Below are positions 10,577 to 30,680 of a stretch of DNA of 51,573 nucleotides, in pieces. The position numbers and the translations under genes are program-made. A model generated the notes under the pieces. The model was given only the letters and a program-made list of their open reading frames with translations. It had not been told where the DNA came from and did not search any database. The stretch spans positions 394-51,966 of the forward strand of contig PLMQ01000039.1 in NCBI GenBank assembly GCA_003142535.1, written 5' to 3'. The DNA is from Syntrophaceae bacterium (GTDB lineage: Bacteria; Desulfobacterota; Syntrophia; Syntrophales; Smithellaceae). Within the stretch, counting starts at the first letter, position 1. The number at the start of each line of letters is the position of its first letter.

Positions 10577-10720
10577 GACGACCCTATAAAATGTTCCAGA
10601 GGCAAGGCGCGCAAATACTGAGAAATGAGGCGTACTTTTACGTACGCCTCAATGACGAAGGATGCAGCGCAACGTCACCTAAAGGTGATAAACAGAATAT
10701 GGACATTTTATGAGGTCGTC
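10577..10720 (+). repeat. palindromic intergenic repeat, family A copy 2
   Basis: Terminal IR gacgaccctataaaatgttcca / tggacattttatgaggtcgtc; central hairpin tgaggcgtac...gtacgcctca; homologous to 2508-2629. Confidence 0.85.
10675..10692 (+). mobile_element. 18-nt hairpin micro-element
   Basis: TCACCTAAAGGTGATAAA is an exact 18-nt insertion relative to family A copy 1. Confidence 0.75.
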
Positions 10721-19865: not shown

Positions 19866-20693
19866 ATGCAACGTCTTAATGTAAAACAATCGCAGATTAG
19901 AGAATGCATTGAAAAATCCCTCTTTGCGGTAAATAAAGTGCCTCGTTTTCATAAAGGGGAAATTCTTCTATTACAGCTTGTAAAAGACGAGGCTAGGGAG
20001 TTTGGCAAATTGCAAGAGCGGATTGAATTTGCTCTTGTATATGATCGCTGCGAAATTGATCATACAGGCGTGATAAGCCGACAACATTGGCCACAGGCAG
20101 GAAAGACATGGGAATATATCCTCGTTTGTTCTGACACGATACCTACTATTCCGTTTAGCTTGGAAGATTTACCACTTTCAAAAAACTACGCCGGACAAAC
20201 TAATCCCCTAGCAATTAGCCAAGAAGACGAAGCTGTGATATCCTCCTATGTTTGGGGTAGATTGAATGGCTATGCACTTAGAGATACATTTGGTCCGAGT
20301 TTGGTTAAAGAGGCACTTGCTAACTATGATGTGGTAAACAAACCAGCACAACCAAGAAAAATCTTGATTCCTGAACATGAAGAATTCTATCGAGATACCT
20401 TGTTAGCTGAATCATTAAAATCTATCTATGATCACAGATGTCAGGTTTGTGGTATGAATTTTAAAATCAAGTACGAAAAACCATTTTCAGAAACGCACCA
20501 TATTCATTCTTTGAGTCAAGGCGGCTTGGATATCAGCAAAAACATTATCGTCATCTGTCCGAATCATCACCGAATAATCCATAAAACTAGTGCTGAATTT
20601 GATCGCGCAAAATTTTTATACAAATATCCAAATGGTTACGAAGAAAGGTTAATACTGGCAGACCACTTCGAACAAAAATCATTTTGGACGTAA
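19866..20693 (+). CDS. HNH endonuclease (McrA-like C-terminus) with uncharacterised N-terminal domain
   Basis: CQVC...ETHHIH..GG..N..CPNHH motif in the C-terminal third. Confidence 0.82.
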   Translation: MQRLNVKQSQIRECIEKSLFAVNKVPRFHKGEILLLQLVKDEAREFGKLQERIEFALVYDRCEIDHTGVISRQHWPQAGKTWEYILVCSDTIPTIPFSLEDLPLSKNYAGQTNPLAISQEDEAVISSYVWGRLNGYALRDTFGPSLVKEALANYDVVNKPAQPRKILIPEHEEFYRDTLLAESLKSIYDHRCQVCGMNFKIKYEKPFSETHHIHSLSQGGLDISKNIIVICPNHHRIIHKTSAEFDRAKFLYKYPNGYEERLILADHFEQKSFWT

Positions 20694-20752
20694 ACAGAAA
20701 TAATCGGGGATGGTTCGATTTAATTGTTTTAATTTTCTGGATTTACCCTAAA

Positions 20753-20806
20753 TAACCTGACCACCTGATACCCTGAAGGGCACAAGAGGTGGCAAGAGGT
20801 CACAAG
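20753..20806 (+). mobile_element. three nested copies of an 18-nt hairpin micro-element
   Basis: TAACCTGA[CCACCTGA[TACCCTGAAGGGCACAAG]AGGTGGCAAG]AGGTCACAAG = 3x18 nt. Confidence 0.8.
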
Positions 20807-20824
20807 CCGGAATGACGGCGGTGG

Positions 20825-20877
20825 CTGGATTCCCCGGTCACCCGGCATCCGCCGGGCAAGCGAGCCGGGGAATGACA
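20825..20877 (-). repeat. CGTC-type REP interrupted by a small hairpin insert
   Basis: ctggattccccggtca...agccggggaatgaca with cccggcatccgccgggcaag inside. Confidence 0.7.
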
Positions 20878-20928
20878 AATGGGATAAGACTTTCCAGCGG
20901 TTATTAATATTTTTAAGAAGGAAAAGCG

Positions 20929-22479
20929 ATGCGCCAAATCAAGAGTAAACGTTACGGCCAGGGGAATCAATTTAAAAGAATATATCTTGTCGCGCCGCGT
21001 CATCCGGATAATTTTTGGTCAATGCAAGGAACGGTCGAGCTTTTGGGCGCCAAGACCCTGATGCCCAATGCCGCTCTGGCCACGCTAATGGCTCTGACGC
21101 CATCTGGAATAAACGTAGAATATGTCTTATGCGATGAAAACGTCTCAGAGCTGGATTGGAACATGCCCTGTGATTTAGCCGTGATCACCGGCGCGACGTT
21201 GCATCAAAAAAGGATACGTGAGCTTTGCTCCGGCTTCCGGCAAAAGGGTATTCCAGTAGCGCTCGGCGGAGCTTATGCCAGCATTAATCATGATCTATGC
21301 ACTAATCTGGCTGATTTTCATTTTATCGGCGAGGCCGAATACACCTGGCCTGCTTTTCTGCAGCAATGGATTAAAGGCAACGCAATGTCTGTTTATCAAC
21401 AAAACACATACGTTGATTTAAAAGATAGCCCCGCGCCGGATTGGTCTCTGATTAATGCCAAAGATTATATTAATATCAGCGTGCAGACTTGCCGTGGCTG
21501 TCCCAAAAGCTGCGATTTTTGCGATGTTATTCAGTATGTGGGCCGAAAACCGCGCACCAAATCAGTGGAACAGGTAATGCGGGAAGTAAAAAATGCGCAT
21601 TTAATAGGCGCGCGCACTGTATTTTTTTCCGATGATAATTTTCTGGCCAATAAAGTATTTACGCAGCAGCTTCTTGCCGAATTAATCACATGGAATAAAG
21701 AACAGACCCGTCCGCTTTCATTTTCCACGCAGATTACCGTGGAAATAGCGGATGATGAAGAATTGCTGCGGATGTGCGCCGATGCCCGCTTTTCTGTTCT
21801 TTTTCTCGGTGTCGAGACCGTGCGGCGGGCAAGCCTGCTGGAGGTTAATAAAGGCCATAATTTAAAATATGATATTGACGAACGTGTGAACAAAATTTCC
21901 CGTTACGGCATTATGCCGTTTCTCGGTTTGATTGTTGGTTTCGATAATGATGATGAAAGCGTCTTCAATGAGCTCTACGATTTTATTGCTCGCACCAACA
22001 GCCCGATTGTCGGCATCAGCCTGCTTAATGCGCCTCGCCATACACCGCTCTTCAGTCGTCTGGAAAAGGAAGGCCGGCTCACGGGTGACGATTTTTCCGG
22101 TGAATGGCAGCTCTATACGAACATTGTTCCTAAACAGATGAGCCGCGCCACGCTTTTAAGCCATTATTGCGAGCTTTTTAAAAAAGTATACGATCCGGAA
22201 TTGTTCCATCATCGGCTCAATGGCTGGCTGAAGCAAGTTGATTACCAAAGTAATTTATATACGAATAAGAAGTTTGATCTCCGGCAATTATCGAATGGCC
22301 TGAAAATGATTATTTACTTTCTGCTTTTTGCCAAACCGGAAGCGAGGAAGCTTTTTCTGCAAAGTATGATAGGCACATGGAAAATAAATCCAAAACTTAT
22401 GAGACGGACATTTACATTCCTGGGGCAGTATCATCACTTCTATGAGTTTGTCCAAAAAAAATTACCCGAAAGGATTTAA
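20929..22479 (+). CDS. B12-binding radical SAM protein (DUF4070-like C-terminus)
   Basis: VALGGAYAS and FIGEAE B12-domain motifs; RGCPKSCDFC (CxxxCxxC); FSDDNF; LGVET. Confidence 0.87.
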   Translation: MRQIKSKRYGQGNQFKRIYLVAPRHPDNFWSMQGTVELLGAKTLMPNAALATLMALTPSGINVEYVLCDENVSELDWNMPCDLAVITGATLHQKRIRELCSGFRQKGIPVALGGAYASINHDLCTNLADFHFIGEAEYTWPAFLQQWIKGNAMSVYQQNTYVDLKDSPAPDWSLINAKDYINISVQTCRGCPKSCDFCDVIQYVGRKPRTKSVEQVMREVKNAHLIGARTVFFSDDNFLANKVFTQQLLAELITWNKEQTRPLSFSTQITVEIADDEELLRMCADARFSVLFLGVETVRRASLLEVNKGHNLKYDIDERVNKISRYGIMPFLGLIVGFDNDDESVFNELYDFIARTNSPIVGISLLNAPRHTPLFSRLEKEGRLTGDDFSGEWQLYTNIVPKQMSRATLLSHYCELFKKVYDPELFHHRLNGWLKQVDYQSNLYTNKKFDLRQLSNGLKMIIYFLLFAKPEARKLFLQSMIGTWKINPKLMRRTFTFLGQYHHFYEFVQKKLPERI

Positions 22480-30439: not shown

Positions 30440-30680
30440 TGAAACTCCTATTCCGAAAGCAAAGCGTATAACCTAAAGGTCACAAGCTGAAGCTTGCTGG
30501 TCGAATTATCCCGCACAGCGGAGGGTAATGAGACCCAAACTTCAGAAACAAAGTGCGTAACCTAAAGGTCACAAGCTGAAGTTAGCTGGTCGAATTACCC
30601 CGTGTTAGCAGGGGTATAATACCCCAAAGCGAGTTTAGGAATATGTTTCCAAAGCTTGCTTTGGGGTTCATACCCTTGAT
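30440..30680 (+). repeat. repeat family B, tandem copies each carrying the 18-nt micro-element
   Basis: Copies begin about 30440 and 30528; TAACCTAAAGGTCACAAG at 30469-30486 and 30558-30575; terminal gggtataatacccc...ggggttcataccc hairpin. Confidence 0.85.

Follow-up and report, generated by a model that had tools for sequence, protein, structure and literature searches.

Within the window (the whole stretch of 51,573 nucleotides (nt) of DNA analysed here), 54 nt at positions 20753–20806 consist of an 18-nt hairpin unit nested three deep. We propose, with a probability that we put at about 0.5, that this unit belongs to an ultra-small, non-coding insertion family that enters DNA at loop–stem junctions, without target duplication and by a single-strand mechanism, that would depend on an enzyme supplied in trans and that has been amplified as a passenger of larger repeats. 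The existence of a discrete module that inserts without target duplication and prefers hairpin loops is supported by the quantised lengths of host loops, the mirrored halves of nested copies, the units found in related genomes and a precise insertion in an archaeal gene.

The stack reads TAACCTGA CCACCTGA TACCCTGA AGGGCACAAG AGGTGGCAAG AGGTCACAAG. Three left halves of 8 nt come first and their right halves, of 10 nt each, follow in mirrored order, an exact match to the triple nest of 18-mers described in the original prediction. The possible fourth left half that had been suggested is also there (TACCCTAAA, at 20744–20752), unpaired and one base beyond an 8-nt half, as are both of the flanks that had been taken for a REP remnant, CTGGATT and CCGGAATGAC. 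The features of the window are as follows, with stem types A to D and hosts 'a' and 'b' (hairpins that carry units in their loops) defined below.

10675–10692, + strand: single D-like unit TCACCTAAAGGTGATAAA, just upstream of the open reading frame (ORF) starting at 10710
20698–20831, + strand: composite repeat made up of a left arm (from aaataatc), the stack itself, then CCGGAATGAC, a linker and the following CTGGATT; aligned over its whole span with a paralogue on contig C2
20737–20743, + strand: CTGGATT, left tag of REP-like family 'c'
20744–20752, + strand: unpaired C-type left half TACCCTAA plus one A; the right half AGGGCACAAG is absent
20753–20760, + strand: outer unit, type A, left half TAACCTGA
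20761–20768, + strand: middle unit, type B, left half CCACCTGA
20769–20786, + strand: innermost unit, type C, complete, TACCCTGAAGGGCACAAG
20787–20796, + strand: middle unit, type B, right half AGGTGGCAAG
20797–20806, + strand: outer unit, type A, right half AGGTCACAAG
20807–20816, + strand: CCGGAATGAC, right arm and tag of REP-like family 'c'
20825–20876, + strand: second, complete REP-like 'c' hairpin (attccccgg / ccggggaat; predicted stem)
20841–20860, + strand: in the loop of that hairpin, a small hairpin cccggcatccgccggg (20841–20856) and then CAAG (20857–20860)
30469–30486, + strand: single A unit between a host 'a' left arm and a host 'b' right arm (a chimera)
30558–30575, + strand: single A unit in a host 'b' hairpin, at the 3′ end of its loop

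The consensus of family 'c' is CTGGATTCCGGC..loop..GCCGGAATGAC, and with up to one mismatch on both strands the genome contains 136 matches to CTGGATTCCGG and 392 to CCGGAATGAC. The unpaired TACCCTAA half recurs in the C2 paralogue and in other CTGGATT+TACCCTAA contexts, and the loop content of the 20825–20876 hairpin is related to a 21-nt mini-insert, 'P'. No host stem was detected around the D-like unit at 10675–10692, which may be a decayed unit or a chance match. As free single-stranded DNA the 54-mer folds into its nested helices weakly (−6.1 kcal/mol for the top strand and −6.5 for the bottom strand; z scores against shuffles of −0.44 and −1.03, respectively); the nesting is a fact of sequence grammar and not a notably stable structure. 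Rfam gave no match at gathering score over the whole window, with a chance-level snoRNA (E = 0.81) as the sole match around the locus, and plasmid and phage collections searched by BLAST with the 80-nt locus returned none. The HNH endonuclease gene that adjoins the stack is single-copy and has no association with other stacks. The internal loops (RA opposite CAAG) were also compared by eye with the kink-turn and the archaeal bulge-helix-bulge; both were rejected on register and bulge geometry.

The 2.93-Mb genome, a draft of 70 contigs and probably that of a peat Smithellaceae, holds 238 stacks comprising 390 paired 18-nt units, which occur singly, in tandems of up to four and in nests up to four deep. 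Its main unit, TAACCTRAAGGTCACAAG, is present in 94 exact copies, compared with none for the reversed control, and the degenerate motif put forward earlier is over-represented when searched as asked, with 185 matches in the genome and 4 in the window, where 0.04 are expected (100 shuffles). Each unit is built from a 6-bp stem, a 2-nt RA loop and a 4-nt CAAG-type tail; CAAG, CGCG and CGAG are seen at the 3′ end, equivalent to a 5′ CTTG-type tag on the opposite strand. The stems fall into at least four co-varying types: A (TAACCT/AGGTCA), B (CCACCT/AGGTGG), C (TACCCT/AGGGCA) and D (TCACCT/AGGTGA). Stack shapes, written as brackets, include (()) (47 cases), ((())) (15), (((()))) (3), ()() (13), (())() (7) and (()()) (1). 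Unpaired left halves number just 27, mostly beside one-base changes or NN masks.

The halves of nested units mirror one another: in 191 of 210 nested pairs the stem triplets on the two sides match, whereas 1,000 shuffles averaged 101 such pairs and never exceeded 119. The compensatory stem changes noticed in the focal stack thus extend to the family, and of 175 matches in other genomes, 174 have an A or C combination that is complementary. Nesting follows an order in which A lies outermost, B lies only inside A or C, and C lies inside B (A>B in 48 nested pairs, A>A in 37 and B>C in 15); B is never outermost in this genome. The earlier idea that the element targets hairpins including itself holds in that the unit's own loops are filled, but nesting is not free and obeys a strong order. 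One composite, A(A′(B)) with an inner CGCG tail, recurs in more than ten host copies.

Host hairpins occur both with and without units. Among 213 copies of host 'a', 163 have loops that fit 8+18n nt, comprising 105 empty copies (8 nt) and 58 filled ones (26 nt in 23 copies, 44 nt in 22, 62 nt in 10, 80 nt in 2 and 98 nt in 1). The same rule fits 91 of the 100 copies of host 'b' (61, 19, 8 and 3 along the series; 61 empty and 30 filled). The 18-mers thus behave as the discrete units that they had been taken for, being gained or lost whole, and the loops of 8 versus 8+18n nt, together with the units lying in hairpin loops, their own included, agree with the absence of target duplication noted in the focal stack. 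Empty and filled states, whose existence had been the proposed check, both occur, in these loops and in an archaeal gene relative to its orthologues (below).

The insertion point is structural. Units abut the descending stem in hosts 'a', 'b' and 'c' and in a GTAG-type REP of relatives; a perfect stem of at least 6 bp adjoins 47% of stacks compared with 14% of 2,000 random sites, and one of at least 8 bp adjoins 32% compared with 2.5%. The 5′ flanks differ (GCGCA, GTGCG, CTRA, CAAG, TTTA and ATGAA), and all that they have in common is a purine ahead of the unit and, in many cases, a T behind it; the borders of the unit are exact in hosts with unrelated flanks. Filled and empty states are partly clustered on the host tree (31 changes compared with a shuffled mean of 46; n = 158), and units are conserved no better than their hosts. 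No pair of hosts that differ in state exceeds 85% identity, so no near-identical filled and empty pair is seen; taken together, these observations give no sign of recent activity here. Most copies in this genome, the focal stack included, spread passively inside larger composite repeats.

With GC skew on the draft contigs as a proxy for the replication strand, the top strand of the unit lies preferentially on the G-rich strand (odds ratio of 2.2–3.1; P = 0.03 to 0.0002), and this bias persists after thinning to one stack per 3 kb. It fits a single-strand mechanism; as empty hosts have it too, it may belong to the hosts rather than to the units. The placement of the stacks looks selfish: by crude ORF calls, 228 of 238 are intergenic, with no bias in orientation relative to neighbouring genes (92 versus 113 at 3′ ends and 88 versus 96 at 5′ ends).

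Contigs from an independent peat study (Logan, run X3) support the 54-mer sequence, for which read support had been named as a check. A 279-nt contig matches 20519–20797 with no differences, starting in unique flank and taking in 45 of the 54 nt, and a second matches 20802–21400, again with none. Summed contig depth is 200–800 within the stack and 10–30 in the flanks, and the contigs end within the stack, a consequence of its repeated words. In the C2 paralogue, at about 11.7 kb on its contig, the outer shell is the same and the innermost unit different, a whole-unit swap involving four compensatory bases; this paralogue also has an extra right half. Among 60 genomes of the family examined for orthologues of the radical-SAM gene downstream, a single one (G073) keeps a recognisable upstream element: a related stack, decayed, at the orthologous place. 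Neither the Logan contigs of four runs nor the family orthologues contained an empty or shortened version of the focal locus, and since these contigs omit rare variants, a missing 18-nt indel allele is uninformative either way. One apparent joint in the Logan contigs derived from a paralogous locus and was discarded. When metagenome contigs were scanned for close strains using the neighbouring 701-residue protein, the best match was 57% identical.

The family crosses phylum and domain borders. Exact units occur in 18 of 24 relatives from the same family and in 0 of 16 genomes from other families of the order. With a relaxed tail, 10–39 units are found in each of five Smithellaceae-type genomes. 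One Methylococcaceae genome has 14 units, and two 0.8-Mb DPANN genomes have 8 and 12 (reversed controls, 0); in a sample of the DPANN order the distribution is patchy (6 of 151 genomes). The same grammar is present in genomes assembled into one or two long contigs and in many unrelated records, and in other phyla and archaea single units lie in unrelated hairpins, in ORFs and in one tRNA. In a Woesearchaeota gene (L012/L162) the unit is an in-frame 18-nt insertion, ATGAA[18 nt]TAAAACAGAA, lacking in all 29 of the other orthologues fetched (for example, ATGAATAAACAAGAA); the closest protein, 84% identical, is exactly six residues shorter. Comparison of the empty site, ATGAATAAA.., with the filled site, ATGAA[18]TAAA.., leaves an ambiguity of 1–3 nt (T or TAA). 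The resulting NLKVTS insert is also encountered near the N terminus of other ORFs and inside an IS200-like tnpA pseudogene of the Methylococcaceae genome. The unit also equals positions 36–53 of some alphaproteobacterial initiator tRNAs (18 of 18 nt), with 15 of 18 matching in the genome's own. Full-text literature searched with the unit sequence in both orientations yielded no prior description of the element; supplements and most subscription journals lie outside that scope, and it may be in print.

An HUH/Y1 transposase, in particular a RAYT, had been proposed to mobilize the unit, and this link is not supported: neither Y1 gene of the genome is tied to unit hairpins. Orthologues of the RAYT on contig C57 are flanked by their own REP, TAGGGACAGCGCCCTA, of which this genome has about six copies, and 31 of 41 relatives have homologues irrespective of their unit counts; an association with the units was rejected on this distribution and on the flanking REP. 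The IS200-like gene on contig C1 was matched in 3 of 24 relatives, and the two closely matching genomes among these (G011 and G019) had no exact unit, so that this association was rejected as well. PF01797 was found in none of the three unit-carrying DPANN genomes searched. PF04986 (Y2) had no match in this genome, an uninformative result as the same search matched 0 of 14 control genomes. Of the minimal non-autonomous mobile element originally envisaged, an insertion-like module survives; the HUH/RAYT link does not, and many stacks are passengers.

In the mechanism that we favour, a whole 18-nt unit would enter DNA without target duplication, preferentially where a hairpin loop meets the descending strand of the stem. 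The unit's own loop offers such a site, so that it would nest, and so does the end of a previous copy, so that it would form tandems; in AT-rich DNA, entry would occur at purine^T(AA) sites. The 54-mer would then represent three copies of the module, each in the loop of the preceding one. Single-stranded DNA at the replication fork is the probable substrate, and insertion would need an enzyme, presumably supplied in trans, for which an HUH-type nuclease is our leading guess. Most copies here would have multiplied along with larger REP/MITE-like hairpin repeats, as passengers in their apical loops. The strong nesting order is not readily accounted for by one enzyme acting on near-identical loops and fits composites copied whole. 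A bolder extension, possible although we hold it to be doubtful, is that this is the smallest self-targeting transposable unit, active in Bacteria and DPANN Archaea, building Russian-doll stacks by means of an enzyme not recognised as a transposase, with a possible origin in, or mimicry of, initiator tRNA positions 36–53.

A dedicated enzyme may be superfluous if units are copied by replication template switching (copy-choice or short gene conversion), a reading that we consider unlikely. A polymerase would stall at a stem and its nascent end would jump via 1–3 nt of microhomology, copy the short hairpin as far as the next stall and return, such that nests and tandems reflect donors nested or tandem beforehand. 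Insertion points at stem junctions, the strand bias relative to GC skew and the lack of a transposase co-occurring with units all suit this process, as does the observation, by eye, that TAA (the first three bases of the unit) usually starts the 3′ flank of non-hairpin sites; the empty archaeal orthologue carries TAA, which therefore belongs to the target. Chimeras with a host 'a' left arm and a host 'b' right arm joined at a unit point the same way and indicate that units do mediate recombination or slippage. Template switching leaves unexplained, however, the same 18 nt with its A·C mismatch in Smithellaceae, Methylococcaceae and DPANN archaea as well as the exact unit borders amid unrelated host flanks, and most hairpin-loop sites, such as gcgca^tcgg, lack microhomology. 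Less likely again is that nothing inserts and that the stacks are one long modular hairpin, the variable apex of a REP/MITE-like repeat, in which 8-nt and 10-nt arms slip, selection or conversion restores pairing and the whole element spreads as one. The fixed nesting order, the recurrent whole composites, the shared shell of the focal stack and its paralogue, the partly clustered filled states, the decayed related stack at the orthologous place in G073, the 27 unpaired left halves and the extra right half in the C2 paralogue would all follow. Yet one-arm slippage predicts many unbalanced stacks, whereas 390 paired units stand against those 27 halves; loops measure 8+18n and never 8+8n or 8+10n; single units sit in unrelated hairpins, ORFs and a tRNA of other phyla and archaea; and the paralogues are distinguished by the exchange of a whole unit, at four compensatory bases.

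Selection might instead maintain the units as RNA or DNA motifs that are bound by a conserved protein or pair with the ribosome. Conservation across domains, the exact match of the B and D stems to anti-Shine–Dalgarno/Shine–Dalgarno sequences, an archaeal host hairpin (AGGAGGT/ACCTCCT) upstream of an ORF and the identity with positions 36–53 of some initiator tRNAs lend this some appeal, but we judge it improbable given the absence of orientation bias towards neighbouring genes, of an Rfam match and of strong folding, the patchiness among relatives and the translation of units as inserts within coding regions. An assembly or library artefact, conceivable in a 70-contig draft in which repeats assemble poorly, is barely credible against the same sequence in independent runs and studies and the same grammar in genomes of one or two contigs and many unrelated records. 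Adapter or linker origin was separately ruled out by the covariation, the nesting within native hairpins and the in-frame inserts.

If the insertion family that we propose is real, the lower size limit of a mobile DNA unit would be newly set at 18 nt, and one repeat family would span phyla and domains within the communities of anoxic peat and sediment. Its balanced-bracket grammar is a countable system for the study of hairpin-targeting insertion and bears on how REP-like repeats, with the variable loops that they have, come about. Coding regions can receive units, as six-residue inserts, and so can tRNA genes. The proposal also points to an enzyme or replication process that recognises the loop–stem junction of DNA hairpins.

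Among known systems, the SDR repeats of Nostoc punctiforme, which Elhai and colleagues reportedly described in 2008, are alike in being very short, nested hairpin repeats with compensatory changes; they are said to be non-coding, about 21–27 nt long with a shared hairpin, to nest in one another and in other repeats, and to have been proposed as mobile with no enzyme known. As SDRs are described, the present unit is set apart by its 18-nt length and 3′ CAAG-type tail, by self-nesting up to four deep in a fixed order of stem types, and by a range spanning several bacterial phyla and DPANN archaea rather than one cyanobacterial order. IS1397 and ISKpn1 are full-size, transposase-coding insertion sequences that target REP loops and duplicate their target; they resemble the unit in using the apical loop of a palindrome, whereas the unit is tiny, non-coding and free of duplication. 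Classical MITEs have the terminal inverted repeats of a parent insertion sequence and a target duplication, in contrast to one 6-bp hairpin with a tail and no duplication. IS91 and Helitron rolling-circle elements feature a CAAG/GAAC or A^T target, a 3′ hairpin and a Y2 enzyme. Rickettsia palindromic elements measure roughly 100–150 nt, compared with an insert of 18 nt, or six residues (NLKVTS), for the unit. In-frame tolerance is common to both, those elements being mentioned, in the passage cited, as small palindromes tolerated in-frame in protein genes (PMC3733652).

IS200/IS605 elements and their non-autonomous derivatives, which move by single-strand 'peel and paste' transposition, carry two unlike subterminal hairpins, as the cited text presents them, and integrate on the 3′ side of a single fixed tetra- or pentanucleotide, with active strands reported on the lagging-strand template (PMC5027513). 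The unit shares with them the absence of target duplication, a hairpin with a short cleavage motif and a lagging-strand-consistent bias (itself shared by empty hosts); it differs in that a single hairpin is the entire unit, that it would seem to target a structural junction or else a loose R^T(AA), and that no TnpA co-occurs with units. REP and REPIN sequences associated with RAYTs are characterized, in the sections cited, as high-copy extragenic palindromes with a tetranucleotide tag, frequent G·T/A·C strand asymmetry and a clustered arrangement (PMC3733652, PMC3116915, PMC3333891), some of which sit within other palindromes and whose 5′ tag is conserved as GTAG or CGTC (PMC3733652). The unit shares the tetranucleotide tag, the strand asymmetry and the clustering, and is likewise a high-copy short extragenic palindrome (94 exact copies, 390 paired units and 228 of 238 stacks intergenic). 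In contrast to REPs, its tag is a 3′ CAAG (5′ CTTG on the other strand) rather than GTAG or CGTC, its stem is 6 bp only, and no cognate RAYT is flanked by and co-inherited with it, the C57 RAYT having a different REP; where REPINs form inverted doublets, the arrangements found for the unit are single, direct tandem and nested.

The focal 54 nt, window positions 20753–20806, read TAACCTGA CCACCTGA TACCCTGA AGGGCACAAG AGGTGGCAAG AGGTCACAAG, that is, three left halves of 8 nt (NNNCCTRA) followed by three right halves of 10 nt (AGGNNN plus CAAG) in mirror order. The window sequence confirms the parse proposed originally, of three nested 18-mers, each placed after the ..CCTGA of the next outer one, as well as the suspected fourth left half, which is unpaired and carries one extra base. 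The REP remnant suggested around the stack also holds, the two flanks being the ends of a REP-like palindrome family in the source genome, G000 (CTGGATTCCGG, 136 matches; CCGGAATGAC, 392 matches; up to one mismatch, both strands). The surrounding features are as follows.

19866–20693: HNH-domain ORF, directly upstream of the stack
20737–20743: left flank, CTGGATT
20744–20752: unpaired left half, TACCCTAAA
20807–20816: right flank, CCGGAATGAC
20825–20876: second, complete member of the REP-like family, with a further small hairpin, then CAAG, in its loop (20841–20860)
20929–22479: radical-SAM ORF, the other neighbour

The HNH-domain ORF encodes 275 aa and is single-copy; the syntenic place in a second genome, G073, has another upstream gene.

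An assembly or library artefact is ruled out for the focal stack, as contigs from an independent run carry the same sequence. The 1.2-kb stretch was found in 20 public runs on peat or soil (17 studies), and in one metagenome run whose study is not marked as a possible source (X3), contigs cover 20519–20797 and 20802–21400 with zero differences. The contigs break inside the stack because the metagenome contains many repeats of its words. They showed no other allele at the focal locus, although contigs cannot reveal rare variants.

The motif is far from confined to this locus. The form proposed originally matches four times in the window, compared with 0.04 expected, and 185 times in G000 (2,928,323 bases, 70 contigs, 43.4% G+C), where the exact main unit TAACCTRAAGGTCACAAG has 94 copies and its reversed control none, bearing out the predicted genome-wide over-representation. 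We tokenised G000 into left halves, '(', and right halves, ')', around each CCTRAAGG core, filtering single units by stem pairing and tail, and obtained 238 stacks, comprising 390 units with both halves and 27 left halves without a partner. Two-letter NN masks lie inside or beside many units across many G000 contigs and break several stacks, so that the counts of balanced stacks are slightly low; one changed token base or an NN mask accounts for most unbalanced chains.

Stack shapes and stem types in G000
Single and nested: () 126; (()) 47; ((())) 15; (((()))) 3
Tandem: ()() 13; ()()() 3; ()()()() 2
Mixed: (())() 7; (()()) 1; few longer mixtures
Stem A: TAACCT/AGGTCA
Stem B: CCACCT/AGGTGG
Stem C: TACCCT/AGGGCA
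Stem D: TCACCT/AGGTGA

The brackets are matched by the stems. Stem triplets agree between bracket partners in 191 of 210 nested pairs, against a mean of 101 and a maximum of 119 when right halves were shuffled (1,000 trials), which extends to the whole genome the compensatory changes first noticed between the focal copies. The A·C mismatch at the second pair of the A and C stems, as written, is a G·T pair on the opposite strand. Nesting is strongly ordered (A>B 48, A>A 37, B>C 15, C>B 7, C>D 5): type A is outermost in 221 top-level units, C in 22 and B in none, although B occurs as a lone unit in some other genomes. Inner A units mostly end in CGCG or CGAG in place of CAAG. The B and D stems (CCACCT, TCACCT) resemble the 3′ end of 16S rRNA.

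The focal stack itself belongs to a composite of roughly 135 nt (20698–20831) with a paralogue on contig C2. The two shells are identical; the innermost units, one of type C and one of type D, differ by four compensatory bases, and the C2 copy has one right half more. The nearest orthologous place, upstream of the G073 radical-SAM gene (86% identical), retains ttttctggattt; after it comes a stack that is related but decayed, reading TGCTCTAA A TGCTCTGA CCAC AGAGAGACGG...

Two larger hairpins are the main hosts of units in G000.

Host 'a', CTCCAATTCCGAAAGC..loop..TCGGAATTGGTAAGTTG, 213 copies; loop lengths 8 nt 105, 26 nt 23, 44 nt 22, 62 nt 10, 80 nt 2, 98 nt 1
Host 'b', CCCAAACTTCAGAAAC..CTGAAGTTTGCTGGTCG, 100 copies; loop lengths 8 nt 61, 26 nt 19, 44 nt 8, 62 nt 3

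Loops measure exactly 8+18n nt in 163 of 213 copies of host 'a' and 91 of 100 of host 'b', the remainder containing a second mini-insert, NN masks or chimeras. In both hosts the units invariably come after the 8-nt loop, directly against the descending stem, a rule that recurs in the CTGGATTCCGGC family, in a GTAG-type REP found in relatives, at GTAGGGAACGGTCGCGA^CCGTTCCCTAC, and in several further hairpins of other genomes and viral contigs. By a blunt test, a perfect adjacent stem of at least 6 bp accompanies 47% of stacks versus 14% of random sites, and one of at least 8 bp 32% versus 2.5%. The second mini-insert, 'P', is a hairpin of about 21 nt with a GAAG or CAAG tail (CCCGGCGRATGCYGGGCGAAG) that sits mid-loop in host 'a' across G000 (for example, on contigs C5, C20, C24, C35 and C69), and the small hairpin at window 20841–20860 is related to it. 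Loops of 'P' themselves hold 18-mers and P-in-P nests occur, which hints that small hairpins with tails form a broader class. Hosts 'a' and 'b' are joined with a 3′ module ending ..TTTCCAAAGCTTGCTTTGGGGTTCATATCC in a composite repeat of 60–100 copies (for example, window 30440–30680 and C57 19950–20260), for which no Rfam family matched. In chimeras at window 30440–30510 and elsewhere, an A unit links the left arm of host 'a' to the right arm of host 'b', most simply through deletion between two direct 18-mers. By crude ORF calling, 228 of the 238 stacks are intergenic, with no preferred orientation relative to neighbouring genes.

Insertion is most directly seen in other genomes. A Woesearchaeota methyltransferase-like gene (Pfam PF07091) starts ATGAA[TAACCTAAAGGTCACAAG]TAAAACAGAA, encoding MN-NLKVTS-KTELIKK, and the 18 nt are absent from all 29 other orthologues fetched from its order (for example, ATGAATAAACAAGAATTA, MNKQELIKK); the closest protein is 84% identical and exactly six residues shorter. 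Five of the 40 best homologues have a unit-derived insert at the same place, two of them longer and interrupting the NLKV..TS peptide. The same in-frame insert lies near the N terminus of other archaeal ORFs and of one Lentisphaerae or viral ORF, the peptide always being NLKVTS because the unit has a single open frame. A transposase gene has itself been struck: an IS200-like tnpA pseudogene with two TAG stops in the Methylococcaceae genome G080 (L156, 1501–1950) carries NLKVTS in frame between KYRY and AVLVG. The variable region of a DPANN tRNA(GGT) gene (L099, 124–235, minus strand) contains an insert of 40 nt that consists of a GC-rich hairpin and a reversed unit. Rfam scores the gene at 41 bits and ARAGORN does not call it; with two non-standard pairs in its acceptor stem, it is possibly a pseudogene or a gene with an intron. 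At the sites inspected in ORFs, tnpA and the tRNA there is no target duplication, 1–3 bases (T or TAA) being ambiguous, as the original prediction held for the focal stack. The predicted contrast of empty and filled sites is realized in the Woesearchaeota gene but not at the focal locus, for which no empty counterpart was found and the metagenome scan gave no close strain.

Of 24 other genomes in the family, taken to be Smithellaceae, 18 contain the exact unit, against none of 16 from the order's other families; relaxing the tail gives 10–39 units in each of five Smithellaceae-type genomes. A public genome collection (596 Gb) has at least 89 loci with the unit; by our arithmetic about 35 are expected by chance, so lone matches in odd taxa mean little. 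Among the matches listed, record titles name 29 Syntrophia, 14 'Deltaproteobacteria', 15 Gammaproteobacteria (mainly Methylococcaceae) and 8 Archaea. Bins labelled Bacteroidales and Desulfotomaculaceae (L029 and L034), with near-identical contig ends, are probably mis-binned Smithellaceae-like DNA, making the phylum spread of single matches partly unreliable. Several copies per genome are firmly established for a Methylococcaceae genome (14 units) and for two 0.8-Mb DPANN genomes (8 and 12), where reversed controls gave 0; units occur in 6 of 151 sampled genomes of the order to which these DPANN genomes belong. Across genome searches outside G000, 174 of 175 matches combine their stem halves as a complementary A or C pair and not as a mixture. 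In one DPANN archaeon (L056/L112), tandem 51-nt repeats upstream of an ORF hold a unit in the loop of an AGGAGGT/ACCTCCT hairpin, a Shine–Dalgarno sequence paired with an anti-Shine–Dalgarno-like one.

Units are gained whole, without duplication, preferentially where a loop meets the descending stem, and they target their own kind. Our leading guess, and only that, is that a trans-acting single-strand nuclease would insert them; replication template switching, for which the unit needs no enzyme of its own, carries real weight, and TAA microhomology at AT-rich sites fits it. The written strand of the unit favours the G-rich strand (70:40 at positive skew, 32:56 at negative; odds ratio 3.1, p 0.0002; thinned to one stack per 3 kb, 2.2–3.1, p 0.03–0.002), the direction that PMC5027513 gives for the IS200/IS605 active strand, on the lagging-strand template; empty hosts 'a' and 'b' share this bias, so it may belong to the hosts. 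The HUH/RAYT enzyme originally proposed finds no support in either candidate gene or in the DPANN search.

C57 (L001, 1195–1887, minus strand): RAYT-like Y1 gene, 230 aa
C1 (L002, 1414–1929, plus strand): IS200-like Y1 gene, 171 aa

Some 150 bp downstream of the RAYT-like gene there is an array of a/b hairpins that includes two tandem 18-mers along with an empty copy. Orthologues of the gene (L115, L116) have the REP (A)TAGGGACAGCGCCCTA on both sides, a REP with about six copies in G000, one upstream of this gene, and homologues turn up in 31 of 41 relatives whatever the number of units. The IS200-like gene, present in only 3 of 24 relatives, is flanked by its own palindrome GAACAAGGGGTTGCAACCCCTTGTTC (16 matches, both strands counted). 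One downstream copy of that palindrome holds in its loop, in reverse orientation, a B-like hairpin of about 20 nt with a CAAG tail. Three unit-bearing DPANN genomes gave no Y1 match.

Much of the copy number is passive. Many G000 stacks recur as whole composites; A(A'(B)), for instance, is repeated across many host copies with an identical unusual inner tail. In a tree of host 'a' (158 copies), weak at 136 nt, filled and empty copies imply 31 changes of state, compared with 46 when labels are shuffled (minimum 39), so that the state is part clustered and part scattered. No near-identical host pair differs in state. The family in G000 therefore appears to be old and mostly a passenger, individual units changing only now and then; units there are no more conserved than their hosts.

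The 18-mer corresponds to initiator tRNA positions 36–53 (end of the anticodon loop, 3′ strand of the anticodon stem, variable loop and 5′ strand of the T stem), exactly in some alphaproteobacterial and Verrucomicrobia genes and near-exactly, with tail CGAG, in a phage tRNA-Met (L006, L023, L025, L051 and L154); four initiator tRNA genes are among the matches listed. The G000 initiator tRNA (tRNA-Met, c[11304,11380]) agrees at 15 of 18 bases, a match with a roughly estimated chance of 0.002 among G000 tRNAs. The match may reflect origin, mimicry or coincidence.

Collectively, the unit is a hairpin repeat of very small size whose insertion targets are hairpins. The original prediction is partly supported: a mobile mini-module targeting hairpins, itself included, stands, but its HUH/RAYT link is unsupported and much of its copy number is passive. 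By its features it falls outside REP/RAYT systems, IS200/IS605 derivatives and classical MITEs. The nearest concept is the Nostoc SDR, reportedly described as 'very small mobile repeated elements'. REPs inside other palindromes and in-frame palindromic inserts in Rickettsia are noted in PMC3733652. The full text searched, mainly of open-access papers, gave no description of the unit, its bracket grammar or its cross-domain spread. The unit is noteworthy for its size, its self-nesting grammar and its spread into archaea.
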